DNA from: Candidatus Magasanikiibacteriota bacterium
Lineage (GTDB): Bacteria > Patescibacteriota > Patescibacteriia > Magasanikbacterales > UBA10003
Direction: 5' to 3'
Assembly (NCBI GenBank): GCA_035400705.1
Contig: DAOMZV010000001.1
Location: 1 to 57,471 of the forward strand
Length of the DNA stretch: 57,471 nucleotides
Each line of letters starts with the position of its first letter. Position 1 is the first letter of the stretch. Shown one piece after another: positions 1 to 14,471 of this stretch. A program made the position numbers and the translations under genes. The notes under the pieces were generated by a model. It searched no databases, was not told where the DNA came from, and saw only the letters and a program-made list of their open reading frames with translations.

Positions 1-397
1 CATCTTGATCAGTAATCACTACATTATTTTTAGATGCTTCTTTTCTAACTACAGAATTTTTTACTAACATATCCCAGACATTCTGACGCATTTCCTTTTC
101 AGAAGGAGTTTGATCAGCTGTTGCTCCTTTATATGATTCTTTAACTGCTTGTAAATCCTCAATAAATTCCACATAACCAATGCGATTACCATTAACAAAA
201 CCAGCTGGCAAACCAATCATCTTAGCAACACCCAAACTAAATTTGTCGTCAGCAAATTTCTTTTCGGAGCGATACGCAACCATACCGACAATACCAATAA
301 TAACTATTAATAAGGCAGCTAACAAACCAATCCCGGCATAAAAATAAACTGGTTTATTTTTTTTGATTTCCACCTTTTCTGTTGTTTGATTATCCAT
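1..397 (-). CDS. membrane-anchored protein, N-terminal part only (C-terminus lies beyond position 1); possibly SurA-N/PpiC-type chaperone family
   Basis: ATG at 395-397 (minus) opens a frame running to the window edge: MDNQTTEKVEIKKNKPVYFYAGIGLLAALLIVIIGIVGMVAY... with one N-terminal TM helix. Absent from the ORF track because no stop lies in the window. Confidence 0.5.
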   Translation of the reverse strand, partial: MDNQTTEKVEIKKNKPVYFYAGIGLLAALLIVIIGIVGMVAYRSEKKFADDKFSLGVAKMIGLPAGFVNGNRIGYVEFIEDLQAVKESYKGATADQTPSEKEMRQNVWDMLVKNSVVRKEASKNNVVITDQD

Positions 398-402
398 AAA
401 TT

Positions 403-798
403 TTAATTAGTTTTAGGTGCGAAAAAATATTCCCACCACAAAGTTAGATTTGATTTATTATTTTGTTCGACATTTTTATTTTTAGTTTCATTAATTTTTT
501 TCGTGCCTTCCGTTATAATAACCACCTGCTCCCCCGGTTTAATTAATCCAAAATTTACCCGCGCTTCTTTTTCTGCCAAATTATCCCCTTCCATTTCCTC
601 TATCAATTCCAAAGTCTTAATTTTTTTATCTTCTAAATTTTGTCTAGTTATTTCCATCTGTTTGATTTCTTGTCTAATTTGATAATCACGCCAGAATGAA
701 CGGAAAAAACCAACCACCAATAAAAATAAAATGGCTGTTAAACCAACTATAAAAAAACGACTTTGAAAAATTCTTCCTGCTAAAGACCTTTTTTTCAT
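403..798 (-). CDS. septum formation initiator family protein (FtsB/DivIC-like)
   Basis: 131 aa with an N-terminal TM helix, then a coiled coil and the family-typical ...AEKEARVNFGLIKPGEQVVII motif. Confidence 0.6.
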   Translation of the reverse strand: MKKRSLAGRIFQSRFFIVGLTAILFLLVVGFFRSFWRDYQIRQEIKQMEITRQNLEDKKIKTLELIEEMEGDNLAEKEARVNFGLIKPGEQVVIITEGTKKINETKNKNVEQNNKSNLTLWWEYFFAPKTN

Positions 799-806
799 AG
801 TTTCAA

Positions 807-1403
807 TTATACCAATTCTTTAAGCTGTTTGTCCACCAAGTCTTTAAGTTTCAACAGATTTTCTTTGGTTTCATTTTTAACTGATTGTAAAATAGCCTCA
901 AAACCCACCGGCCGCGCGCCATTTTGCATCTGTTTTTGTTGAATTTGAGCTAAAATATTAACTATTTGGGCCGGTTTTTTAAGTCTATTAACTTCAAAAA
1001 TTGTCTTGCCTTCGTTGGTTTCTATCACTATTTTTCCATAACGAAAAATGGTTGGAAAAACACCTTTAACTTTGTAAGTTATACTGCGAATGTTAAAAAA
1101 ATTCAAATCGGTTACCACTTTGTTCAATACTCCTTTTCTTTGGACTTTAATAGCCCGCTCATTAGTAACTAAAAAAAAGTTAGTTCGCCAAAAAAATAAA
1201 GTTCTAATTAAAATTATTACAGCCATAACCAAAGAAGCCACAAACAAACCAACCCCCCAATTACCCCAAGAAAATAAAATAAACATAAAGAAAAACGGAG
1301 CGGCCACAAAAATAAAAACTAACAGCCAGTACCAAAAATAAGTTAAACCGTAGCGATGATAAATTCTAACTACTTTTTCTTGAGGATGCAATAAAATTGA
1401 CAT
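807..1403 (-). CDS. membrane protein with bacterial PH (YdbS/YdbT-like) domain
   Basis: 198 aa with two TM helices followed by FFLVTNERAIKVQRKG...YGKIVIETNEG...RLKKPAQIV, a bPH_2-like pattern. Confidence 0.5.
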   Translation of the reverse strand: MSILLHPQEKVVRIYHRYGLTYFWYWLLVFIFVAAPFFFMFILFSWGNWGVGLFVASLVMAVIILIRTLFFWRTNFFLVTNERAIKVQRKGVLNKVVTDLNFFNIRSITYKVKGVFPTIFRYGKIVIETNEGKTIFEVNRLKKPAQIVNILAQIQQKQMQNGARPVGFEAILQSVKNETKENLLKLKDLVDKQLKELV

Positions 1404-1406
1404 AAT

Positions 1407-2717
1407 TTATTTCAGTGCTTTTAAAATTTCTTCTTTAGCCACTTGCCGATCATCCCAAGGAATTTTTTGCCCATTTTTAACACAAATAGCTTGTTCCGAA
1501 CCTTTGCCTGTAACTAAAATTAAATCTTCGGGCTGGGATAAAGCAATGGCTTTAGCAATCGCCTCTCGCCGGTCTAAAATTTTCCACAAATCTTGGCCTT
1601 CTTGCTTTCCCTTTCTAATCGCCCCGTCCGCTACTTGATTTATAATCATTAAAGGGTCATCATCATAAGGGTCTTCATTAGTAACAATAACCACAGAGGC
1701 TTGCTGCCCCGCAATTTCTCCCAAAATCGGTCGCCGCGCCACATCTCGCCCACCACCAGTTCCACCTAACACATGGATTATTCTTTGATGAGGAATTTGT
1801 TTGATTGTTTCATAAAGAGCTGTCATCGCTTTAGGTTCAAAAGCATAATCCACCATTACTTTAAAATTTTGTCCTGCTTCAATAAATTCTTGTCGGCCGG
1901 GGATATTTTTCATCGCTCCCGCCGCTAGCTTAATTTTCTGCCAACCCAAACCCAAAACCTTAGTAATAGTAACGGCGCAAAGAGAGTTATAAATATTTAA
2001 CTCGCCCATTAAAGATAAAGAAAAATCTTGATCCTCAATTTTAAAGGAAATATTTTGTCCCGCGCTTAAATAATTAAAGGCTTTAATTTGCTCGTCAACA
2101 ACAAAAGAGTTGGGTTTTAAACCAAAGACCACTTTTTTATCAGCTGGAAAAGATAAAAAATACTCAGCTTGTTCATCATCACCATTAACAATAATAGTTT
2201 TGGGTGGAGCAAAAGATTTTTTATAAGTTGTAGCTAAAGCGGCAAATAATTTTCCCTTGGCTTTTTGATAATTGGCAAAACCGCCGTGCGCTTCTAAGTG
2301 TTCGGGATATAAATTAGTTAAAACCACCACGTCGTAATCAATATCTATATGACGAAATTGTTCTATACCTTGGGAAGTAGTTTCAATAAGGGCGATTTCA
2401 CAACCGGCCTTAACCATCCGACTCAGCATTTTTTGGGTTTGAAAACGGCCGAGCATGGTCATTTTTTTATCATTTAATTTTTCCCACTCTCCAACTTTAA
2501 AAAAAACTGTGGAAGTAACGCCAACTTTTTTTCCGGCTGCTTCTAATAATTTAGCCAACAAGTAAACTGTGCTGGATTTACCACCAGTTCCCGTCACCCC
2601 CACTACTACTAAACGACGAGAAGGATAACCAAACCACCACGCCGCCAGTTTGGCTAAAAATAAATGATACCAACTAATAGCCGACCGAGGAATAAATTTT
2701 TTGATTAAACTTTTCAC
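1407..2717 (-). CDS. murE: Mur ligase, MurE-like (UDP-MurNAc-L-Ala-D-Glu:diamino acid ligase) with a short N-terminal domain
   Basis: P-loop GVTGTGGKSST, NLYPEHLEAHGGFANY, PGRQEF...VDYAFEP...GGTGGGRDVARRP...TNEDPYDDDP. GTG start. The P-loop sits at about residue 41, so the usual domain 1 is largely missing. Confidence 0.7.
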   Translation of the reverse strand: MKSLIKKFIPRSAISWYHLFLAKLAAWWFGYPSRRLVVVGVTGTGGKSSTVYLLAKLLEAAGKKVGVTSTVFFKVGEWEKLNDKKMTMLGRFQTQKMLSRMVKAGCEIALIETTSQGIEQFRHIDIDYDVVVLTNLYPEHLEAHGGFANYQKAKGKLFAALATTYKKSFAPPKTIIVNGDDEQAEYFLSFPADKKVVFGLKPNSFVVDEQIKAFNYLSAGQNISFKIEDQDFSLSLMGELNIYNSLCAVTITKVLGLGWQKIKLAAGAMKNIPGRQEFIEAGQNFKVMVDYAFEPKAMTALYETIKQIPHQRIIHVLGGTGGGRDVARRPILGEIAGQQASVVIVTNEDPYDDDPLMIINQVADGAIRKGKQEGQDLWKILDRREAIAKAIALSQPEDLILVTGKGSEQAICVKNGQKIPWDDRQVAKEEILKALK

Positions 2718-2721
2718 AAAA

Positions 2722-3381
2722 TTATTTTTTAAAAAATCTTATAATTCGCAATAATCTCACCCAAACAAAAATCCGCACCAATTGCCAATCCATTTTAATA
2801 TACCCACCCAAACCTACAAAAAAATTAGTTTTTAACATTTTTGGCAAATGATTTAAGCCTAGCAAGAGAACTGTTTTGACTCGCAAATTATTAGTAAGAC
2901 AATAATCATTTAAAGCTTCTTCTACTTGATAGCCGGTTAATAAATCTGGGGCAATAGACTCAAAAATTTCTCTTTTTAAAGCGCGTTGACCACTGATTTT
3001 AGGAATTTTTTCATTCAAAGCGTAAAAATCTTTATACTTGGGCTGAATCCCAATCACCATTTCTGCCTCCCCTTTTTCCACCGGAGAAATTAAATCTTGC
3101 AAATGTTTTTTTCTGACATTTAATAAATCGGCATCAAAAAATAACAAAATCTTATCAGTTGTTTCTCTAACTCCTACCGCCAGAGCCTCACCTTTACCTA
3201 AATTTTTAGGCAAGTTAATTACAGTCGCTCCAGCTTGCTTAGCTAAAAAAGCCGTGCGATCTTTAGAACCATCATTCACAACAATTACTTGATCAAACAA
3301 GTCCGAACGTTTTAACGCCCGTACTAAATTATAAATGGTTTTTTGTTCATTGTGAGCCGGAACGATTACCGAAACGGACAT
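2722..3381 (-). CDS. family 2 glycosyltransferase
   Basis: MSVSVIVPAHNE...VNDGSKDRT...GKGEA...FDADL. ATG at 3381 is preferred over the track's TTG at 3396. Confidence 0.75.
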   Translation of the reverse strand: MSVSVIVPAHNEQKTIYNLVRALKRSDLFDQVIVVNDGSKDRTAFLAKQAGATVINLPKNLGKGEALAVGVRETTDKILLFFDADLLNVRKKHLQDLISPVEKGEAEMVIGIQPKYKDFYALNEKIPKISGQRALKREIFESIAPDLLTGYQVEEALNDYCLTNNLRVKTVLLLGLNHLPKMLKTNFFVGLGGYIKMDWQLVRIFVWVRLLRIIRFFKK

Positions 3382-3405
3382 ATTTTTAAGAACCAAAAAA
3401 TAAAG

Positions 3406-3981
3406 TTATTTTCGCAAACTAACTTCGTAGGCAATTTCTTCTATTTTGCGACGAGCGTTTTTAGCTTGATCAAATTTGGTGCGCAAATAGCCGGTAAAAT
3501 TAAACTGCACCAAAGCTGCCATTAAATCTTCGGTTACGGTTGCTGCGCGTTTTAATTCCACCCAATTTCTTTCGGTGGCTTGTTTTAAAGCATAACGCTG
3601 AATCTCTCCTATCGCATCACTCAAACCGCCCATATAAGTTTCTGGAGAAACTTCCAAACCCTTAATTGGACCAATGGTTTCTTGATATAAAAATTGACGA
3701 TACAAATCCGCTTCGGAGTATTCTTCCATCGCTGCTTTTAAAATACCTTCGTCGTCAGCGGCAATACTTTTAGCTTGCATTTTTTGCGCCTGACTAATAC
3801 CCACCAAGGCCTGTTTTAACAACTCTTCACCGGCTTTCCAATCATTGCGATGAAAAGAAAAAATTGCTTGCTTAGATTTTTGCAAAGCATTGGCGGAAAG
3901 ATCTTGAACCTCACGACGGGACTTTTCCCACACACTAAAAACTGACTGTAATTTTTGAATGTATTTTTTGTTGACGTTCAT
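3406..3981 (-). CDS. translin-family (COG2178-like) predicted RNA-binding protein
   Basis: 191 aa, all-helical, with the motif ETYMGGLSDAIGEIQRYALKQ resembling the Y..GL.D..GEL.R signature of the archaeal translin family. Confidence 0.45.
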   Translation of the reverse strand: MNVNKKYIQKLQSVFSVWEKSRREVQDLSANALQKSKQAIFSFHRNDWKAGEELLKQALVGISQAQKMQAKSIAADDEGILKAAMEEYSEADLYRQFLYQETIGPIKGLEVSPETYMGGLSDAIGEIQRYALKQATERNWVELKRAATVTEDLMAALVQFNFTGYLRTKFDQAKNARRKIEEIAYEVSLRK

Positions 3982-4032
3982 GTAATTTTAATTAAAATTA
4001 TGAGCTTAATTATACTTAATTTTAACATAAAT

Positions 4033-4103
4033 AAAAAAAACCGGCAATCTTACGATCAGCGTTGGCTGACTTTCAGATTGCCGGTTGATCTCGTTGCGAG
4101 ATC
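4033..4103 (-). terminator. double-hairpin intrinsic terminator of the high-GC gene
   Basis: Minus strand: a 7-bp hairpin gatctcg-caa-cgagatc (4087-4103), then a 12-bp stem aaccggcaatct/agattgccggtt (4039-4050 with 4075-4086) containing an inner tcagc/gctga hairpin, followed by T8 (4033-4040). Confidence 0.75.
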
Positions 4104-4152
4104 ATGGTGGGGTTATTAGAGATTAGCACTGGGGATCGTGGAGCAGAACGGA

Positions 4153-5556
4153 TTACGCCGCGTTCTTTCCCTTCTTGGGCTGGGGCTGGCCGCGACGAGT
4201 GTCGCCGCCACCGCCCTTGCCCTTGTGGGCCTCGCGGAAGGCGCGATCCGCCTCCCGCTTGGCCGCCTTCGCCTGTTCGACAGCGGCCGGATCCATCTTG
4301 GCCCGCGTCCGTTCGGTCTTGCCCGTGTGGCGGATGACCGGACGGGCGGCGGAGTCGAAGGTCTTCTGCTGCTGGATCTGGCGCGGCGGATGGGCCGCCA
4401 GCCAGTCCTTGTGTGTCAGCGCGCAGCGGAGCTGGGCGATTACCGCCCTGCGAACCAATTCAGATTCGCCAGCGGCCTTGGCTTCCGCAACAGCGGCCTG
4501 GGCTTCGGCGATGAAATTGTCCAGGTCGGCGGAACCGACGGCGGAGAACTGCTCACGCAGCCTCCCAACATAGGCGAACCTGGCCTTTTCGGTGTACTCC
4601 TCGTACACCTGGGCCGTGATCCGTTCCTGCCAGCCTTCCACGGTCTGGCCAGCTTCGGCCTTGGCGTTCAGGAACCTGTCCATGGCGCGAGCCAGGGACA
4701 CATGATCCCAGACCTGCGATCCGTCGGCGTACGCCGCAGATTCGGACAGGATCGTGGTCACTTCAGCGATCAGCGCGTCCTGCGCCGCCTGCCGCTGAGC
4801 GGCCTCGGCTTCGCGTTCGGCGAGCCACCTCTGGGTTTCATCCCAGTGATGGAACCTTTCGGCCTTGCCGAGCAGCTTCCTGAGGCGGTTGGCCACCACC
4901 TCCTCACAGACGAAACAGAGGCGGAGGACTTTTGCCTCCGTCGCCGGGATCATCTTCCCGGTGAACATCGACTTCACGAAAACAGCACCGTCGATGTCCT
5001 TTTCCAGCGCCTTGACATCGGAAACGCGCTGAAAGTACCCGTTCGGCTGCGTCTGGATAAAGGACAGGGCGACAGCATCGTCGACCGGAATCCCGGCGCC
5101 GACGAGAACTTCCGGGTGCGCCAGTTCGTAGGCGCGGATCCGGGCCGCTTCGGCCTTGGCTTCGGCGTCGGCCTTGGCTTCGGCGTCGGCCTTGGCTTCG
5201 GCCGCGTCACTGTCGATCTTGGCCTGGATCAGTTCGAGAATCCTCGGGCCACGCGTTCCCATTTCTTCCAGCCCGACCACGAGGTCGGACTGGTCATCTT
5301 CCGTGAGAGAAAAGAACTTCTGAACGATTTCCGAGTCGGACAGGAGTCCGACCGTTTCGATCTTCAGAGCTACCGAGTCCGCATCAAGACCCAGCGCCAT
5401 TTTCAGGCGCCGGAATTCGTTTCCGGCCTTCTTGACCGCCGCGCGGAAACGCGCCTTGGCCAAGATCCCCTCGACCTCGACGGCGGCCACGGCCGCGTCG
5501 ATTTCGCTGTCGAGCATTTCCGCGAGATTCGAGAAAAACTTGTTAATCATGTCCAT
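4153..5556 (-). CDS. hypothetical protein of unknown family: Ala/Glu/Lys-rich, (AEAKAD)n repeat, basic Gly/Lys/Arg C-terminal tail
   Basis: Open frame of 467 codons, very unlikely by chance at this GC, with GC-rich third codon positions. GGAGG lies 8 nt upstream of the ATG at 5554-5556; the track's TTG at 5571 would overlap that SD. Has its own promoter and terminator. I recognise no catalytic or family motif. Confidence 0.75.
   Translation of the reverse strand: MDMINKFFSNLAEMLDSEIDAAVAAVEVEGILAKARFRAAVKKAGNEFRRLKMALGLDADSVALKIETVGLLSDSEIVQKFFSLTEDDQSDLVVGLEEMGTRGPRILELIQAKIDSDAAEAKADAEAKADAEAKAEAARIRAYELAHPEVLVGAGIPVDDAVALSFIQTQPNGYFQRVSDVKALEKDIDGAVFVKSMFTGKMIPATEAKVLRLCFVCEEVVANRLRKLLGKAERFHHWDETQRWLAEREAEAAQRQAAQDALIAEVTTILSESAAYADGSQVWDHVSLARAMDRFLNAKAEAGQTVEGWQERITAQVYEEYTEKARFAYVGRLREQFSAVGSADLDNFIAEAQAAVAEAKAAGESELVRRAVIAQLRCALTHKDWLAAHPPRQIQQQKTFDSAARPVIRHTGKTERTRAKMDPAAVEQAKAAKREADRAFREAHKGKGGGGDTRRGQPQPKKGKNAA
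5152..5205 (-). repeat. 18-bp in-frame tandem repeat (about 3 copies) encoding AEAKAD/AEAKAE
   Basis: ggccttggcttcggcgtc occurs at 5152-5169 and 5170-5187, with a diverged third copy from 5188. Confidence 0.85.
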
Positions 5557-5732
5557 TTCCAGTACCTCCAAAATGGCCCCAAGGGGGCCTTCCCTAATAG
5601 CTTTGAGCAGGAACCCTCCCGCCCAACCGGTAAAAACGGCTTAGCTAAGTCATCTTTACCGGCAGGACGAAACTTCCCGCCTTATTTAAGGAACAACCTT
5701 GTTTAAAGGGTTTGATCTATTTCGGACCAGAA
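5557..5732 (-). promoter_or_regulatory. structured 5' leader of about 175 nt with a terminator-like hairpin just before the RBS
   Basis: Minus strand: hairpins ggcggga-agtttcg-tcctgcc and ccggtaaa-N20-tttaccgg (with an internal palindrome cttagctaag), then ggcccc-ctt-ggggcc followed by AUUUUGGAGG. Confidence 0.5.
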
Positions 5733-5738
5733 CAAATT

Positions 5739-5767
5739 AGTATAGCACATTTGACAGGTTTTGTCAA
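5739..5767 (-). promoter_or_regulatory. sigma70-type promoter of the high-GC gene
   Basis: Minus strand TTGACA (5762-5767), 17-nt spacer, TATACT (5739-5744). Confidence 0.7.
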
Positions 5768-5779
5768 GAGGTGTATGCT
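5751..5779 (+). promoter_or_regulatory. sigma70-type promoter, probably for tRNA-Lys
   Basis: Plus strand TTGACA (5751-5756), 17-nt spacer, TATGCT (5774-5779). It interdigitates with the opposing promoter. Confidence 0.55.
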
Positions 5780-5877
5780 ATTGATTGAAACTTTTATAAT
5801 TTTATCCACGGCCCACGAATGATTATTGGTCATATACATTACAATATTGAAAGAATACTTAGAATAAAATCCATTAT

Positions 5878-5953
5878 GGCCCGGTAGCTCAGCTGGTAGA
5901 GCAACAGCCTTTTAAGCTGATGGTCCTGGGTTCGATCCCCAGCCGGGTCACCA
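5878..5953 (+). tRNA. tRNA-Lys (anticodon UUU), CCA encoded
   Basis: A 76-nt cloverleaf folded by hand: acceptor GGCCCGG/CCGGGTC, D arm GCTC-AGCTGGTA-GAGC, anticodon loop CTTTTAA, T arm CTGGG-TTCGATC-CCCAG, 3' ACCA. Confidence 0.9.
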
Positions 5954-5960
5954 AAAATTA

Positions 5961-5985
5961 CTCCATTAAAAATGGGGTTGTTTTT
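5961..5985 (+). terminator. hairpin plus T-tract downstream of tRNA-Lys
   Basis: ctccat-taaaa-atgggg followed by ttgttttt. Confidence 0.5.
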
Positions 5986-6032
5986 GTATACAAGTTACAA
6001 TGGTACGCTTGGTTAGCCTCCAGCCCTTTCAC

Positions 6033-6066
6033 CAAAAAACACTTCATAAAAATGAAGTGTTTTTTG
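6033..6066. terminator. bidirectional intrinsic terminator (ends murG on the minus strand)
   Basis: A-tract, 9-bp stem acacttcat/atgaagtgt, T6. Confidence 0.8.
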
Positions 6067-6078
6067 GTTTAATCTTTT

Positions 6079-7206
6079 TTATTTTATCTGCTTCATTATT
6101 TCATTAATCAAAAAAGCCATTTTCTCTCTAGCGTCTATCGGCATAATCTTTTTTAAATAATGAGAAAGATATAGCCGATCTTCTGGACTACCAACTAAAT
6201 TGACAATCTGTTTAATCAATTTACTAACTGGTTCTTGACCACTAAAAAAAACCGGAGTCTGGGCTTTAGACCAAAAGATCCTAGCATTCAATTCTTGATG
6301 ACCTGGCAAAGGTACAGCCACAAATGGCTTGCCTAACACGGCTAATTCCGACAAGGTGGAAAAACCAGCTCGAGTTACCACTACCTCACTGGCTGCATAA
6401 GCATCGGCTAAAGTTTTTTCGTCTAAAAATTTTACCGGGTGATATCTTTCTTTAATCAAGATATCCACTCGTCCACCTTTTAAGACTGGCACGGCCAAAT
6501 CCTTGCCAGCTCCCAGCATATGAATTATTTGACACTTTTTAACCAACTCTTCCAAATTACCAATAATTATTTTATTCAACGCCAACGCCCCAGTCCCCCC
6601 ACCCAAAATTAAGACCGTCGGGATTTCTGGATCTAATAAAAAATTCTTAATCGCCTCTTCCCGTCGACCCAAAAAAATTCCCTCGCGTACCGGGTTGCCT
6701 AACCACAAAGTTTTAGCCGAAGGAAAATCTGCTAAATTACGTTCTAAAGAAACTGTAATATGGTCGGCAAAACGGGACATTATTTTATTTGCCAAACCTA
6801 CTTCCGCATCCTCTTGGTGAACAAGCGTAATTTTTTTTTGCCAATGCGCTATTAAATGTAAAGGAACACTGACAAAACCGCCGGCGGAAATCAAAATATC
6901 AGGCTGCCATTTTTTAATCACTTGCCAACTTTGAAACAAGGCCTGAACAAAATGAAATGAATCTAAAAAATTTCTCCAACTAAAATAGCGACGCAATTTA
7001 GCTTCGGACAAACCAATAAACGATAGCCCATATTTTTCCACTACGGTTTTTTCCGGACCACCTTTTACTCCTACCCACAAAAATTCATACTGATTAGGAA
7101 ACTGTTTTTTTAATTCTTGATAAACAGCAATCAGTGGCATTACTGGGCCCAAAGTACCGCCGCCGGAAAATAACACTCGTTTTTTTTTCAAAACTTCCTC
7201 TACCAT
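6079..7206 (-). CDS. murG: undecaprenyldiphospho-muramoylpentapeptide beta-N-acetylglucosaminyltransferase
   Basis: LFSGGGTLGPVMPLIAV N-terminal glycine loop and GGGTGALALN in the C-terminal domain. ATG at 7206 sits 1 nt after the ftsW stop; the track start at 7233 would overlap ftsW. Confidence 0.85.
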   Translation of the reverse strand: MVEEVLKKKRVLFSGGGTLGPVMPLIAVYQELKKQFPNQYEFLWVGVKGGPEKTVVEKYGLSFIGLSEAKLRRYFSWRNFLDSFHFVQALFQSWQVIKKWQPDILISAGGFVSVPLHLIAHWQKKITLVHQEDAEVGLANKIMSRFADHITVSLERNLADFPSAKTLWLGNPVREGIFLGRREEAIKNFLLDPEIPTVLILGGGTGALALNKIIIGNLEELVKKCQIIHMLGAGKDLAVPVLKGGRVDILIKERYHPVKFLDEKTLADAYAASEVVVTRAGFSTLSELAVLGKPFVAVPLPGHQELNARIFWSKAQTPVFFSGQEPVSKLIKQIVNLVGSPEDRLYLSHYLKKIMPIDAREKMAFLINEIMKQIK

Positions 7207-9846: not shown

Positions 9847-10122
9847 ATGGCACATAAAAAAGCTGGTTCCTCAACTTCGTTAGGCCGCGATTCACAATCA
9901 AAAAGACTGGGCATAAAAGCCTTTGGAGGAGAAACTGTTAAAGCCGGTGAAATTTTGGTTCGCCAAAGAGGCACTAAGTTTTTCCCTGGTCAAAACGTCA
10001 AAAAAGGTGGAGACGACACTCTTTATGCTGGAATTGCTGGTAAGGTCAAATTTAATCGCCGTAAGGTTAAAAAGTTTGATGGCAGTTTAAAAGAAAGAAA
10101 GTTCATCAATGTTTTAGCTTAA
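9847..10122 (+). CDS. rpmA: 50S ribosomal protein L27
   Basis: [29 protein letters not shown]...[10 protein letters not shown]. Confidence 0.95.
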
Positions 10123-10127
10123 AAAAT

Positions 10128-10161
10128 AAAAAACAGGCTCTTGCAAAAAGCCTGTTTTTTA
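10128..10161. terminator. bidirectional terminator between rpmA (+) and pyrG (-)
   Basis: A-tract, stem acaggct/agcctgt, T6. Confidence 0.8.
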
Positions 10162-10163
10162 TT

Positions 10164-11789
10164 TTACTTTTTAAGAGAAGCTTTAATAAATTCTTTAAAT
10201 AAAGGATGAGGTCGCAAAGGACGAGACTGAAATTCGGGATGAAATTGTACCCCCACAAACCAAGGATGCTTGGATTTAGATAATTCAATAATTTCAACTA
10301 AATCTTTTTGAGGGTTAATGCCAGATAAAACTAAACCCTTATTCTGTAACAACTCTCTATAATCATTATTAAATTCGTAACGATGGCGGTGGCGTTCCGA
10401 AATTAAATTTTGTTTATAAGCCACTCGAGCCAAACTGCCTTTTTTTAACCAGCAATCATAAGCTCCTAAACGCATACTACCACCATAATGTTTTTTAGCT
10501 AACTCTTTTAACTGCTCGGGCATAATATGAATAACTGGGTGCTTAGTTTTAGGATTTGATTCGGTTGTGTGGGCATCTTTTAAACCACAAACAGTTCTAG
10601 CAAATTCTATTGTAGCCAACTGCATGCCATAACATAAACCTAAAAAAGGTAAATGATGGGTTCTGGCATAACCAATGGCTTTGATTATGCCTTCTACTCC
10701 CCGACTTCCAAAACCACCTGGAACCACCAAACCATCAAATTTAGACAAGTCTTTTAATTTAGCAGGGTTTTTTTCATAATCTTCAGAGTTTATCCAAGTT
10801 AACATCGGTTTTACTTTATTGGCCCAAGAAGCGTGTTTAATAGCTTCAATGACTGAAATATAAGAATCAGCCAAAACATATTCACCGGTAGAAAAATATT
10901 TTCCCACTACGGCAATATGAACTTCTTTTTTAACAGTTTTTATTAAATGAACTAAGGCTCGCCAATTTTTTAAATCTTTATTAACTGGACGCAAATGAAA
11001 CTTTTTTAAAATCTTATTACCCAAATCATCATTTTCAAAATTAATTGGCACTTCATAAACATAATCGGCATCTGGCGCAGAAATAACATCTCCTTCTTGA
11101 ACATTACAAAACATTGCTAATTTTCTCTTTCGTGGCTCATCTAAGGGTCTTTCAGCGCGACAAAGAATAAAATCCGGCTGGATACCAGAAGAATTGAGGG
11201 TACGCACCGCATATTGAGTGGGCTTGGTCTTCATTTCGCCAATTTTAGAAGGGATTGGCAAAAAACTAACTAAAAAGAACAGGACATTTTTAGGCGATTC
11301 AATCTTCATCATACGAGCCGCTTCTAAAAACAAAACGTTTTGATACTCTCCAACTGTGCCACCAATTTCTATTAAAACAAAATCGGCGTGAGCTTCTTGC
11401 CCCGCAGTTTTAATTCTTCTAATTACTTCTTCTGGAACATGGGGCACAACCTCAACACAGCGGCCGCCGTACTCTAGATTTCTTTCTCGCTCAATTACAG
11501 TTTTATAGACGCGTCCAGTAGTCATGTAATTAACAGAGGTGATATTGGTGTCTAAAAATCTTTCATAATTACCAATGTCTTGGTCGGTTTCATCACCATC
11601 AACAGTCACAAAAACTTCGCCGTGTTCTGTTGGATTCATGGTGCCAGCATCTAAATTGATATAAGGATCAATTTTAATAGCGGTAACAGTATAACCTTTG
11701 CTTTGCAAAATTTTACCAATTGAAGCACTAGCTGTTCCTTTACCCACCCCAGACATTACCCCACCAATAACAAAAATGTAACGCGTCAT
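10164..11789 (-). CDS. pyrG: CTP synthase
   Basis: MTRYIFVIGGVMSGVGKG N-terminus and a C-terminal glutamine amidotransferase domain (GLCYGMQ, HRHRYE). Confidence 0.95.
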   Translation of the reverse strand: MTRYIFVIGGVMSGVGKGTASASIGKILQSKGYTVTAIKIDPYINLDAGTMNPTEHGEVFVTVDGDETDQDIGNYERFLDTNITSVNYMTTGRVYKTVIERERNLEYGGRCVEVVPHVPEEVIRRIKTAGQEAHADFVLIEIGGTVGEYQNVLFLEAARMMKIESPKNVLFFLVSFLPIPSKIGEMKTKPTQYAVRTLNSSGIQPDFILCRAERPLDEPRKRKLAMFCNVQEGDVISAPDADYVYEVPINFENDDLGNKILKKFHLRPVNKDLKNWRALVHLIKTVKKEVHIAVVGKYFSTGEYVLADSYISVIEAIKHASWANKVKPMLTWINSEDYEKNPAKLKDLSKFDGLVVPGGFGSRGVEGIIKAIGYARTHHLPFLGLCYGMQLATIEFARTVCGLKDAHTTESNPKTKHPVIHIMPEQLKELAKKHYGGSMRLGAYDCWLKKGSLARVAYKQNLISERHRHRYEFNNDYRELLQNKGLVLSGINPQKDLVEIIELSKSKHPWFVGVQFHPEFQSRPLRPHPLFKEFIKASLKK

Positions 11790-12381: not shown

Positions 12382-12903
12382 TTAACGCTTGCTCCATTGT
12401 GGGGCGCGACGAGCTTTCTTTAAACCGAATTTCTTTCTTTCTTTAACGCGTGGATCACGAGTCATAAAACCGCTTTTTTTCAAAACTGGTTTGAACTCTT
12501 CATTCCATTTAACCAAAGCTCTAGCAATGCCCAAACGTATAGCATCGGCTTGACCAATAGAACCACCACCAATAACATTTATTTTAACATCATGAATACC
12601 TTCTTCCTGCACGGCTTTTAAAGCAGCTAAAACCTTTTCTTGCAAAATAAAATGATTAAAAAAATCTTTTAATTTTTTACCATTAATAGTAACCTCGCCC
12701 TTGCCGGTTTCCATAAGTCTAACCTGGGCTTTAGCGGATTTTCTTCGTCCAATGGCATAAATATACCTACCTTCACGGCCGACTTTTTTTTCTACTTTAG
12801 GAACAGCCACTTCTTTAACTGGCTTTTCCACTTTTTCAACCTTCTTAACCACTTTAGTCTTAGCGGCGACTTTTTTAGTTGTTGTCTTTTCTTTAGTTAC
12901 CAT
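12382..12903 (-). CDS. rpsI: 30S ribosomal protein S9 with a Lys/Val/Glu-rich N-terminal extension
   Basis: C-terminal ...GGGSIGQADAIRLGIARAL...RDPRVKERKKFGLKKARRAPQWSKR, preceded by an extension of about 45 aa (KVEK repeats). Confidence 0.9.
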   Translation of the reverse strand: MVTKEKTTTKKVAAKTKVVKKVEKVEKPVKEVAVPKVEKKVGREGRYIYAIGRRKSAKAQVRLMETGKGEVTINGKKLKDFFNHFILQEKVLAALKAVQEEGIHDVKINVIGGGSIGQADAIRLGIARALVKWNEEFKPVLKKSGFMTRDPRVKERKKFGLKKARRAPQWSKR

Positions 12904-12907
12904 AAAA

Positions 12908-13270
12908 TTACTTCTCTATTTTTAAACGCTTTAAACGCTTATCTTTTAATTTGTTTTTGGGCAACATTCTGCTGACAGCTAAACGAATAATTTCACTAGC
13001 GTCTTTAGCTAAAACATCTTTAAAAGCTCTTTCTTTTAAACCACCTGGATAATTGCTGTGGTGTTTATAAATTTTATCGGAATACTTATTGCCAGTTACC
13101 CTTATCTTAGAAGCATTCTTAATAATTACAATATCCCCAGAATCAACATTAGGAATGTAATCGGGTTTATTTTTCCCCTGCAATAAAGTAGCCACTAAAG
13201 TAGCCAAACGTCCCAAAATTTGGTCGGTGGCATCAATAGTGTGGGTTGCTCTTTTATATATTTCTTTCAT
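12908..13270 (-). CDS. rplM: 50S ribosomal protein L13 (short form)
   Basis: IDATDQILGRLATLVATLLQGKNKPDY...YKHHSNYPGGLK...MLPKN. Confidence 0.9.
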   Translation of the reverse strand: MKEIYKRATHTIDATDQILGRLATLVATLLQGKNKPDYIPNVDSGDIVIIKNASKIRVTGNKYSDKIYKHHSNYPGGLKERAFKDVLAKDASEIIRLAVSRMLPKNKLKDKRLKRLKIEK

Positions 13271-13281
13271 AATCTCTAAAA

Positions 13282-13632
13282 TTAAACTAATTCAATCGAA
13301 ACCATTTCGGCGGCATCTCCGGCGCGATTTCCTAATTTAATGATTCTAGTATAACCACCCTTGCGTCCAGCATATCTTTTGCCCAAATCTTCCATGATTT
13401 TCTTAACTGGATTTTCTGTGTGGAAAAAAGATAATAATTCTCGACGAGCTGCTAAAGTGTCTTGTTTGCCGACAGTGATCATTTTTTCAACTAAAGGTTG
13501 CACAGCCTTAGCTTTAGCTTTGGTAGTTTTAACTTTTTCGTACAAAACAACACTCGCTGCTAAATTTTTAAGTAAAGCAACACGAGGTGCCTTCTTTCTG
13601 TCTAAAATGACTTTTTTCTTTTGATGACGCAT
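13282..13632 (-). CDS. rplQ: 50S ribosomal protein L17
   Basis: MRHQKKKVILDRKKAPRVALLKNLA...GGYTRIIKLGNRAGD. Confidence 0.9.
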   Translation of the reverse strand: MRHQKKKVILDRKKAPRVALLKNLAASVVLYEKVKTTKAKAKAVQPLVEKMITVGKQDTLAARRELLSFFHTENPVKKIMEDLGKRYAGRKGGYTRIIKLGNRAGDAAEMVSIELV

Positions 13633-13637
13633 AAAAA

Positions 13638-14471
13638 TTACTTCTTTTTCTTGGTAGTGGTTTTCTTTGCTTTCTTTTTTGGCTTAGCTTCTTCTTCGGT
13701 CTCTTCTTCTGCTTCTTCGTTTTCTACTTCTTCAGCTTTTTCTTCAATTTCTGGCATAGTAATTACTTCTTTTTCTGCTCCGCCGAAACCCTCCAAAATT
13801 AAATTAATGTGATCTTGTAAAATTTGGGTACCTTGCATAAAAGCACTGATCGGGGTCATCGTGCCGTCTGTTTCAATATCCAAAGTTAATCTTTCAAAAT
13901 TAGTAATCTCACCAACGCGAACAAAATCTACTTTATATCCAACGTGCAACACTGGATTAAAAATAGAATCAATCGCAATGGTTCCTAACTCTAATTTATT
14001 TTTTTCTTTTTCTTCAACTGGAACATATCCACGACCTTCGGAAACAAAAATTTCCATTTCTAATTTAGCATCTTTATGAGTTAAAGTAGCTAAATGTAAA
14101 TCAGAATTAACAATTTCAACATCAGAAGTAGTCTCAATTTGGGCAGCGGTAACTTCTCCTTCGCCCTTAGCACTCAAAGTAAGTTTAACTTCTTCTGGAG
14201 AAAAAACTCTTAATCTTAATTGTTTTAAGTTTAAAATTAATTCAACAATATCTTCCTGAACATGTTCTAAGGTAGTAAACTCATGAGAAGCACCCTTAAT
14301 TTTAACAGCGGTAACAGCAGCGCCAGGTAAAGAAGATAGTAAAACACGACGCAAGGCATTGCCTAAAGTTGTCCCATAACCATGAAAACAGGGTTCGATA
14401 ATAACTCTAGCCGCATTAGGTTTATCCAGCTCTTCCACTTTAAATGTTGATGGTAGAAGAAATTTTTCCAT
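13638..14471 (-). CDS. rpoA: DNA-directed RNA polymerase alpha subunit, N-terminal domain only, with a charged low-complexity tail
   Basis: GYGTTLGNALRRVLLSSLPGAAVTAVKI in an rpsD-rpoA-rplQ context. 277 aa ending in EEKAEEVENEEAEEETEEEAKPKKKAKKTTTKKKK instead of a folded alpha-CTD. Confidence 0.9.
   Translation of the reverse strand: MEKFLLPSTFKVEELDKPNAARVIIEPCFHGYGTTLGNALRRVLLSSLPGAAVTAVKIKGASHEFTTLEHVQEDIVELILNLKQLRLRVFSPEEVKLTLSAKGEGEVTAAQIETTSDVEIVNSDLHLATLTHKDAKLEMEIFVSEGRGYVPVEEKEKNKLELGTIAIDSIFNPVLHVGYKVDFVRVGEITNFERLTLDIETDGTMTPISAFMQGTQILQDHINLILEGFGGAEKEVITMPEIEEKAEEVENEEAEEETEEEAKPKKKAKKTTTKKKK

Follow-up and report, generated by a model that had tools for sequence, protein, structure and literature searches.

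A G+C-rich gene held at one chromosomal site in Candidatus Magasanikbacteria and the predicted folding of its mRNA

The locus, its G+C-rich gene and the transcription unit

The stretch of DNA analysed here (the window) is a contig of 57,471 nucleotides from a Candidatus Magasanikiibacteriota bacterium (DAOMZV010000001.1, assembly GCA_035400705.1), and the subject of this report is a single minus-strand gene of unusually high G+C content, located between a tRNA-Lys gene and a translin-family gene in an A+T-rich genome (Table 1). The gene is an old resident of its lineage, its composition is probably maintained by selection, and its coding RNA is predicted to fold more stably than shuffled messages for the same protein.

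G+C content in 200-nt windows rose from 0.335 (3901-4100) to 0.645-0.72 (4101-4400), stayed at 0.57-0.69 on to about position 5600 and was back at 0.345 at 5701-5900; all other 1-kb windows of the 57 kb had values of 0.27-0.42. The jump from about 4041 to about 5700 described in an earlier note on this DNA, which had been made from the letters alone, was thus confirmed (61.6% G+C for 4041-5700 versus 34.9% in the rest of the window), and the hand count of 75% given there for 4201-4260 was exact; the translin-like gene, noted as 38%, measured 39.6%. The island holds one minus-strand open reading frame (ORF; 4153-5556) of 467 codons from ATG, with 63% G+C overall and 0.68, 0.43 and 0.79 at codon positions 1, 2 and 3, respectively. 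Relative to the 55 other ORFs of at least 90 amino acids in the window (G+C at third codon positions (GC3) 0.270 +/- 0.037, maximum 0.389), it lies 14 standard deviations (SD) higher in GC3 and 4.4 SD higher at first positions (GC1). The codon-usage comparison that had been proposed as a check bore out a codon style unlike that of every neighbour: the codon table is the inverse of the genome's, and both composition and codon usage are atypical for the host. Leucine is encoded by CTG/CTC (TTA/TTG in the genome) and lysine by AAG over AAA at 30:2 (80% AAA in the genome), and the product is rich in alanine and arginine. The G+C excess tracks codon phase and ends at the transcript ends.

The gene order at this slot is mraY, ftsW, murG, divergent tRNA-Lys(UUU), the G+C-rich gene, the translin-family gene, a GT2 glycosyltransferase gene and a Mur ligase gene. 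Among the homologous loci (designated by L numbers), L001 was taken from the European Nucleotide Archive (ENA), L002-L005 and L007 from Logan assemblies of five different runs, and L006 (GCA_001783145.1, protein OGH85200.1, Candidatus Magasanikbacteria) and L133 (GCA_016214465.1) from NCBI. Gene placement was judged wherever the contig was long enough, with L001, L005, L006 and L133 spanning both sides. The slot was filled in all eight syntenic loci (L001-L007 and L133; translin identities 66-100%), with tRNA-Lys at the same place in L001, L002, L005, L006 and L133, and partial in L003, L004 and L012. In an outgroup from Patescibacteria whose translin shows 41% identity, the space from murG to translin is taken up by a GGDEF gene, a GT4 glycosyltransferase gene and an M50 peptidase gene, and neither a homologue nor any G+C-rich gene was found in that slot.

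A word-indexed search of 5.8 billion proteins returned three homologues (99, 74 and 68% identity), and a profile search of 1.84 billion representative proteins returned eight members, down to 21% identity (E 1e-67 to 1e-5), none from another lineage where the context was known. IMG/VR, a set of 50,697 phage records and one of 72,556 plasmids yielded no relative, and scans of GTDB species representatives and JGI metagenomes with short exact peptide patterns, which do not prove absence, gave none either. Eleven family members entered the folding analyses presented below. GC3, listed for the window, L002, L003, L005, L006, L008-L012 and L133, was 0.79 in the window and L002, 0.83 in L003, 0.99 in L005, 0.95 in L006, 0.87 in L009, 0.78-0.79 in L010 and L012, 0.73 in L133, 0.63 in L011 and 0.54 in L008. 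Flanks of the family members had a G+C content of 0.35-0.46 (35-40% in six members of known flank composition, with GC3 of 0.79-0.99; GC3 in the rest was 0.54-0.87), and the GC3 of 0.99 in L005 occurs in a genome of 39% G+C. Codon choice is not uniformly G/C-ending: glutamate is encoded by GAA over GAG at 32:11 in the window allele, and at about 3:1 in the window, L002 and L003, where lysine and glutamine codons are almost purely G-ending, and L005 uses GAG at 61:0.

The complete transcription unit that had been read from the sequence was found to be present in all its parts, from the promoter through the leader and ribosome-binding site to a two-hairpin terminator (Table 1). Of the 11 family members, 10 share the promoter hexamers and most of the spacer, and in L008 the promoter is a variant. 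A promoter-pattern scan of metagenomes matched more than 120 unrelated loci and not one family member, and because the same type is common in unrelated metagenome contigs the promoter is read as a generic strong one, with no family signature. The -35 hexamers of the two face-to-face promoter-like sites (5739-5779) form a palindrome, TTGACAaaaccTGTCAA (TTGACA..TGTCAA), and the spacer is near-identical in most family members; the palindromic overlap could also be an operator.

The leader is near-invariant from 5557 to about 5700 in the window, L002 and L003, and family leaders of 142-250 nt share its architecture, the exception being L011 with a leader of only 34 nt. Its 21-bp helix could be aligned ungapped and in register in nine family members, with 18-21 of 21 pairs canonical and many two-sided compensatory changes (columns changing on both sides include CG/UA/UG, GC/UA/AU and AU/UA/CG); the apical insert has a length of 12-115 nt, and UUGGGCG is invariably present in the 3' arm. 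The helix is near-perfect over about two turns (at least 20 bp), the extent that characterises RNase III substrates. Most other members have a hairpin of differing sequence at the position of the short hairpin that precedes the Shine-Dalgarno sequence. An Rfam 15 scan (E <= 1) gave no match in the leader or the coding region, and neither leader motif recurs elsewhere within the window. In L009, L010, L012 and L133, the 3' arm of the helix can alternatively pair within a local hairpin (GGGCGAA..TTCGCC), after which comes a run of T4-6 (T4 in L133), and this suggests a putative attenuator with alternative pairings; the T run is absent in the window clade. The terminator is near-invariant in the window, L002 and L003, and other members have comparable long hairpins and T runs. 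Leader and terminator are both better conserved than the coding region.

Table 1. Features of the G+C-rich gene and its neighbours (positions in the window)
Feature	Position	Strand	Remarks
Translin-family gene, downstream neighbour with own promoter	3406..3981	-	Pfam PF01997, E 3.9e-14
3' untranslated region (UTR) / intrinsic terminator	4032..4152	-	Hairpins 4086-4104 and 4040-4085, T8 at 4032-4039; -39.2 kcal/mol, z -6.8
Antisense ORF, 522 codons	4138..5706	+	By-product of codon choice, no gene
Coding sequence, 467 codons and TAA	4153..5556	-	Codon periodicity, dN/dS, protein homology
Disordered basic Gly/Lys/Arg tail	4156..4224	-	pLDDT below 50; preceded by conserved KREADRAxREAHKGKGG
Small alpha/beta domain, residues 150-245 (about 155-237 modelled)	4822..5109	-	pLDDT 90.9 and pTM 0.81 for the domain modelled by itself
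18-bp tandem repeat encoding (AEAKAD)n, 2.9 copies, in long predicted helix	5150..5202	-	
N-terminal helical domain, codons 1-95	5272..5556	-	RRLK and MTDxE motifs; invariant RRL and DxE; same in window and L002
Structured 5' leader, about 177 nt, 49% G+C	5557..5733	-	-70.9 kcal/mol, z -3.45, more stable than 200 of 200 shuffles
Short G+C hairpin (5575-5589), then Shine-Dalgarno GGAGG (5565-5569)	5565..5589	-	GGAGG 8 nt before ATG at 5556
Conserved 21-bp leader helix	5617..5672 (arms 5652-5672, 5617-5637)	-	UUGGGCG in 3' arm
Promoter of G+C-rich gene	5739..5767	-	TTGACA-17-TATACT, TG before -10; 11 of 12 consensus positions
Divergent promoter-like site overlapping the gene's promoter, facing tRNA-Lys	5751..5779	+	TTGACA-17-TATGCT
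tRNA-Lys(UUU), divergent neighbour	5878..5953	+	Marks conserved slot
dN, dS: nonsynonymous and synonymous divergence; pLDDT, predicted local distance difference test; pTM, predicted template modelling score.

Origin, coding status and persistent composition

Since the same slot is filled in all sampled relatives, the outgroup is without the gene and no donor homologue was found, the gene is a vertically inherited, lineage-specific resident of Candidatus Magasanikbacteria, within Patescibacteria, that predates the divergence of the sampled members. Two of the explanations offered in the earlier note do not hold against these comparisons. For a chimeric assembly, in which reads of a high-GC organism were joined into a contig of the candidate phyla radiation (CPR), the composition jump alone speaks; the same gene and junctions were found in independent ENA, Logan and NCBI assemblies, across samples and assemblers, with the four long contigs spanning both sides, and the A+T-rich promoter and G+C-rich leader co-vary as one unit across the family. 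The probability left for a chimera is negligible. Very recent acquisition, suggested earlier with a high-GC host or its phage as donor, is contradicted by the presence of the gene in the same slot where translin has diverged to 66-88% and the gene itself to 21-36%, by alleles separated by a synonymous divergence (dS) of 0.5-0.9 that nevertheless keep a GC3 of 0.79-0.99, and by the family-wide promoter, leader and terminator. No homologue outside the lineage turned up in the collections searched, whether of other organisms, phages or plasmids.

Transfer from a high-GC donor at any time, recent or ancient with incomplete amelioration, would account for a composition and amino-acid usage like those of a high-GC organism, and the adjoining tRNA gene would fit it too. 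We nevertheless hold it to be very unlikely, given the single site shared by all sampled relatives at protein identities down to 21-36%, synonymous turnover without G+C loss (GC3 still 0.99 and 0.95 in L005 and L006, respectively) and a local promoter that overlaps the tRNA promoter. As had been noted, there is no integrase, transposase or flanking repeat: the neighbours are housekeeping genes (dcw-cluster and ribosomal), no inverted or direct repeats flank the island, and no att duplication was seen. The gene also adjoins the 5' side of the tRNA gene, whereas integrases usually target the 3' end, and integration at tRNA-Lys was rejected because the gene lies on the wrong side and lacks repeats. 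The locus thus resembles horizontally acquired genomic islands in its abrupt composition and codon anomaly beside a tRNA gene, but differs from them in lacking mobility genes and flanking repeats, in occupying one site in all sampled relatives with no donor found, and in showing no amelioration despite saturated synonymous change.

The empty site that had been suggested as a check was not encountered in any of the eight syntenic loci; only the distant outgroup is without the gene, and other genes stand there. It had further been argued that the novelty would lapse if many relatives carried the gene here with a known function: the gene was indeed found in the relatives, whereas no annotated function turned up. 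Novelty is raised by this result and not removed, because a composition so far from that of the genome, persisting through vertical descent, needs an active cause. The third explanation offered at the outset, a functional gene of unrecognised role, stands.

The G+C-rich gene is a real protein gene, as follows from the excess of third-position substitutions (84, 66 and 146 between alleles at codon positions 1, 2 and 3, respectively), a ratio of nonsynonymous to synonymous divergence (dN/dS) of about 0.3 (0.24-0.33), the codon periodicity of its G+C content (0.72/0.40/0.99 in L005), distant protein homology and a confident fold prediction. That the true product is instead a large non-coding RNA or the 522-codon antisense ORF is highly improbable. 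The transcript is predicted to be highly structured, and in the window, L002, L003, L005, L006 and L133 no stop interrupts the antisense frame anywhere in the element, as that reading would have it; however, protein similarity outlasts DNA similarity, the periodicity, substitution pattern and fold prediction just given are those of the sense frame, and all of the expression signals (promoter, Shine-Dalgarno sequence, terminator) work for the minus strand. As a gene in its own right the antisense ORF was rejected, as it contains one to eight stops in five members (L008-L012) and its product has no family match. The frame stays open because a codon-aligned antisense frame is closed only by TTA, CTA and TCA, which are avoided here. 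An RNA function in addition to coding may still exist.

Divergence of the gene is far ahead of that of its surroundings. Between the window and L005 and L006, translin identity was 88% and 71%, respectively, versus 36% and 33% for the protein of the G+C-rich gene, and its dN was 10-17 times that of the neighbours; overall, the protein changes at roughly ten times the pace of theirs. Compared with L002, codons 1-95 and the leader are identical (dS 0.015), whereas codons 96-467 show a dS of 0.76, a dN of 0.23 and 68% amino acid identity between flanks that are 85-100% identical, with an abrupt break in identity near 5262 in a sliding-window comparison. Within the variable part, roughly equal distances separate the window, L002 and L003 alleles, yet the dS of the neighbouring GT2 gene is 0.23 between window and L002 versus 1.3 to L003. 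Mosaic identity, together with alleles that are equidistant while their backgrounds differ in closeness, shows that the gene recombines and that its alleles are old. Over positions 1-5960, the window and L002 also form a mosaic, in which blocks of 99-100% identity (for example 78-1178 and 5262-5761) alternate with blocks of 79-87% (1378-2678); these blocks indicate frequent homologous recombination in the population.

G+C richness has persisted across a synonymous divergence of 0.5-0.9 between alleles in a genome whose equilibrium GC3 is about 0.27. Over such distances unconstrained sequence would be expected to have decayed, and the composition therefore appears to be maintained and not merely inherited. 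Synonymous changes were polarised on the window and L002 branches (S for G/C, W for A/T), giving 24/212 S>W, 7/50 W>S and 24/212 S>S (G<->C) changes in the G+C-rich gene, versus 15/95, 24/250 and 1/95, respectively, in the neighbouring genes. Relative to the neighbours, G/C endings were thus lost less and regained more, and swaps between G and C were about ten times commoner. GC3 in the window clade may be slowly drifting down; L005 and L006 are held at 0.95-0.99.

Folding of the coding RNA and explanations of the composition

Folding was quantified as the sum of local (120-nt) predicted energies and compared with that of synonymous codon shuffles. With plain shuffles, six members gave z scores of -2.6 to -5.9, and none of 50 shuffles was as stable; 15 ordinary genes of the window gave -0.28 +/- 0.97 and 16 genes of genuinely high-GC organisms (GC3 0.73-0.88) gave -0.11 +/- 0.85, the latter implying that the folding excess is no general property of G+C-rich genes. 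A stricter shuffle, which keeps the protein, the codon usage and all dinucleotide counts exactly, gave negative z scores in 11 of 11 members (-7.6 (window), -8.2, -5.5, -8.8 (L005), -3.2, -2.7, -2.1, -4.0, -3.8, -1.7 and -1.7), with six controls at +0.4 to -1.3. The window's coding RNA thus ranged from -5.9 (plain) to -7.6 (strict), and L005 retained its z of -8.8 with almost only a C-versus-G choice left at third positions. In relative terms, the excess amounted to 10-16% in the window clade, L005 and L011 and to 4-9% in the others (controls -1.4% to +4.5%); the signal is strong in seven members and weak in four. Sense-strand folds were favoured over antisense folds in each of the six members compared. 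The excess extends along the coding region and is highest at codons 21-100, 181-240, 281-340 and 421-460.

Under the explanation we favour, while holding it to be about as open to being wrong as to being right, the gene is specific to its lineage and its composition is kept in place by selection for an mRNA that is base-paired throughout and probably long-lived. Selection would favour pervasive pairing over the full length of the message; the easiest route to it in an A+T-rich genome would be G/C at synonymous sites and amino acids with G+C-rich codons, which would lead to the G+C richness and the inverted codon usage. A compact message would resist nucleases and hydrolysis and so be long-lived; hairpins at the 5' and 3' ends would cap it, and few transcripts could then supply abundant protein in a very small, slow cell. 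Combined with the near-consensus promoter, the shielded 5' end and the strong terminator, this would probably serve to provide an unusually stable and plentiful message. The leader helix would probably be the site for a double-strand-specific factor, either in RNase III processing or as the target of a binding protein, and this factor could be the gene's own basic-tailed product. What is kept seems to be the degree of folding and not one particular fold, and no specific structure of the coding region is claimed.

The main rival is a recombination hotspot with GC-biased gene conversion: alleles would be exchanged here with particular frequency, and heteroduplex repair favouring G/C would raise G+C wherever constraint is weak, which would also inflate amino-acid change and shift the protein towards alanine, arginine and glycine. 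It would be compatible with the sharp mosaic between window and L002 (dS 0.015 versus 0.76), the near-equal distances among three alleles of unequal genome closeness, the raised GC1 (+4.4 SD) and Ala/Arg-rich protein, and a dN 10-17 times as high as in the neighbours. A partial precedent is known from the Borrelia vls cassettes (49% versus 28.6% G+C; PMC11499132). What the rival does not predict is the effect of codon order on folding (z to -8.8 with dinucleotides preserved) or the asymmetry towards the sense strand. Moreover, the excess follows codon phase and stops at the transcript ends, the GAA preference of the window clade is contrary to a blanket G/C bias, and the flanks are mosaic too and yet A+T-rich. 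As the principal cause we consider it unlikely, but biased gene conversion may contribute.

A design at the level of translation would have the gene written in the genome's rarest codons, read by nearly private tRNAs, for slow, insulated or starvation-robust translation. The inverse codon table would suit such a design, as would a codon choice that is specific (GAA kept, AAG and CAG at about 100%) and stable in three alleles. The GAA preference of the window clade would fit here and in neither the folding nor the gene-conversion model, although none of the models considered explains why this codon is the exception, and tRNAs that read only G-ending codons exist (anticodons starting with C, Glu-CUC and Pro-CGG, are encoded in the window). 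Private tRNAs would, however, predict no folding excess over shuffles that preserve codon usage, and they leave the raised GC1, the amino-acid shift and the G+C-rich structured UTRs unexplained; the argument also draws on the tRNAs of 57 kb only. We regard this explanation as rather improbable.

Several points weigh against selection for folding as the cause. The folding energies are thermodynamic predictions, and 4 of the 11 members reach z scores of only -1.7 to -2.7, with an excess of 4-6% that is near the two highest controls (4.3-4.5%). Predicted pairs of the window allele were not specifically retained in L002 and L003 (a mixed result), and because the structure would be generic, covariation inside the coding region cannot confirm it. 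The GAA preference of the window clade, next to G-ending lysine and glutamine codons, is left unaccounted for, and intragenic recombination keeps biased gene conversion possible as a contributor. Nothing explains why one gene needs such an mRNA, and the function of the protein is a guess from shape and charge. The scope of the analysis is eleven alleles, predicted structures and an incomplete genome (57 kb).

A bolder reading, to which we would give only a small probability, is that the transcript is more than a message, namely the bacterial counterpart of an RNA that is virus-like in its pervasive folding and has its own function; in one version, its double-stranded character would allow it to be bound, shielded or packaged by the encoded basic-tailed protein, or handled by the translin-like nuclease, for storage in dormancy or extracellular delivery. 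If this were true, the codon inversion, the leader helix and a rapid co-evolution of RNA and protein would belong to one RNA-protein system without a described relative.

The predicted protein, comparable systems and minor observations

The largely helical product with an (AEAKAD)n repeat, a basic Gly/Lys/Arg tail and no recognisable motif that had been described from the translation was corroborated on each point by AlphaFold2, profile and fold searches. An AlphaFold2 model from a ten-sequence alignment (pLDDT 81.6) placed, in order, an N-terminal bundle of short helices, a 45-residue AEAKAD helix and the small alpha/beta domain, followed by five long helices, a disordered stretch, the conserved KREADRAxREAH helix and the Gly/Lys/Arg tail. 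The product is predicted to be cytoplasmic and mostly helical, with about 350-500 amino acids across the family; no signal peptide or membrane segment was found in the protein sequence. AEAKAD copy number varies, the near-identical P0001/L001 allele (10001-11386) having one unit fewer (461 versus 467 amino acids). Most of the family-invariant residues lie in the alpha/beta domain (D160, I167, A208, C214, R224 and L225), and the L133 member (353 amino acids; 5526-6587) is without this central domain.

Searches of Pfam, PHROGs, NCBIfam and PADLOC gave no match for the window protein or any family member. Foldseek gave no hit below E 0.1 for the full model against PDB and BFVD, and none below E = 1 for the alpha/beta domain against PDB; a sequence-profile search of PDB returned designed helical repeats only (E 0.004). 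Homology with translin/TRAX was rejected (hhalign probability 0.1%, no translin among the Foldseek hits), as were a zinc-binding Cys/His motif, of which only C214 is invariant, and a helix-turn-helix of the sigma-70 region 4 or LuxR type at residues 204-229, where AlphaFold2 predicts strands with high confidence. Most likely, the protein binds a polyanion such as nucleic acid or serves as a structural scaffold, a suggestion from predicted shape and charge that is the weakest point of this account.

Some parts of this arrangement have counterparts elsewhere. In designed 'superfolder' mRNAs, structured coding regions combined with an accessible start lengthen functional half-life and raise protein output (PMC6883848). 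The G+C-rich gene resembles them and also has 5' and 3' hairpins and a strong promoter, but those mRNAs are engineered and were tested in eukaryotic cells, whereas folding here is known from prediction alone. To our knowledge, no natural bacterial gene like these designed structured mRNAs has been reported. Ordered RNA structure on the genome scale (GORS) in RNA viruses consists of a folding excess of 7-15% (hepatitis C virus, SARS-CoV-2) with non-homologous pairings (PMC7642675). A similarly pervasive excess over shuffles is seen here (in the window clade, L005 and L011 it amounts to 10-16%), and here as in the viruses conservation of individual pairings between relatives is poor, which suggests that folding as such would be selected and not particular structures. 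The differences are that this is a chromosomal bacterial mRNA with no replicase and no viral homologue found, that its G+C content lies about 28 points above that of the genome and its codon usage is inverted, and that the benefit proposed for viruses, evasion of vertebrate innate sensing, is inapplicable.

In the antigenic-variation locus vls of Lyme-disease Borrelia, the cassettes have 49% G+C in a genome of 28.6%, and the authors of that study infer strong selection maintaining composition (PMC11499132). Like the present gene, it is a fast-diversifying, recombining gene at a much higher G+C content than its A+T-rich genome; vls differs in its silent cassettes, in its G runs and a GC skew near 0.5, and in coding for a surface lipoprotein, whereas the gene described here has a coding-strand GC skew of 0.05, no repeated copies within the window and no signal peptide. 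The var genes of Plasmodium are a case similar to vls. Long leader helices that are processed by RNase III or act as 5' stabilisers occur in E. coli pnp and rnc, in lambda N and in the phage SP82 stabiliser in Bacillus; the leader described here shares with them a near-perfect, covarying helix that spans at least 21 bp and precedes the ribosome-binding site, but its conserved UUGGGCG arm has no known counterpart and no Rfam match. Control by TTA and bldA in Streptomyces involves one codon and one tRNA. Here too a gene is set apart by codons that are rare in its genome, as a mirror image with G/C-ending codons in an A+T-rich genome, but nearly every codon is affected and codon order also matters.

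In the literature, no description was found of a cellular gene vertically held so far from the composition of its genome, nor of virus-like pervasive folding in a bacterial mRNA. New here are the protein family and the leader RNA; pervasively structured coding RNA and compositional islands are known kinds. Compositional outliers are routinely read as foreign, and this gene, though extreme, is native and old and appears to be actively maintained. If selection for pervasive folding is the cause, the RNA level can determine nearly all of the codon usage and part of the amino-acid composition of a cellular gene, in a manner comparable to RNA viruses with structured genomes and to therapeutic mRNAs made by design. 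The eleven alleles, graded in G+C content, would then form a natural test bed for RNA structure versus tRNA selection versus biased gene conversion in bacteria. A fast-evolving and probably highly expressed protein family is added together with a new conserved leader RNA in a candidate phylum without cultured members.

The translin-family protein of the window is identical to HPV70284.1, from a metagenome-assembled genome of Candidatus Magasanikbacteria. The 467-amino acid translation of the G+C-rich gene and a 472-amino acid one (TTG start, 4153-5571) were both absent from a collection of 15 billion proteins in which the contig's translin protein is present; the deposited annotation may have left the gene uncalled, or may have it on the other strand or with a different start. 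In L003, two extra genes (2466-4572; 362 and 338 amino acids) lie between translin and GT2; they gave no Pfam match, are absent from the window and L002, and are known only from Logan assemblies. In L133, a large serine recombinase gene (12439-13899) lies about 5 kb downstream of the family member and is not adjacent to it.

The window and L001 carry a 68-bp A+T-rich insertion (5810-5877) that separates the 5' end of tRNA-Lys from the shared promoter region. It has a GGGCC direct repeat at its bounds, is absent from L002-L004 and adds about 68 nt to the distance of the tRNA from the divergent promoter-like site; it also contains a weaker promoter-like site (ATTACA-16-TAGAAT, 5838-5865). Several family members are on contigs of only 1.6-2.5 kb, and many assemblies (L002-L004, L007-L012) end at or close to tRNA-Lys, no more than a few hundred bases upstream of the gene, which could reflect strain variation at the 68-bp indel, a repeated tRNA gene, or uneven coverage at the composition boundary.

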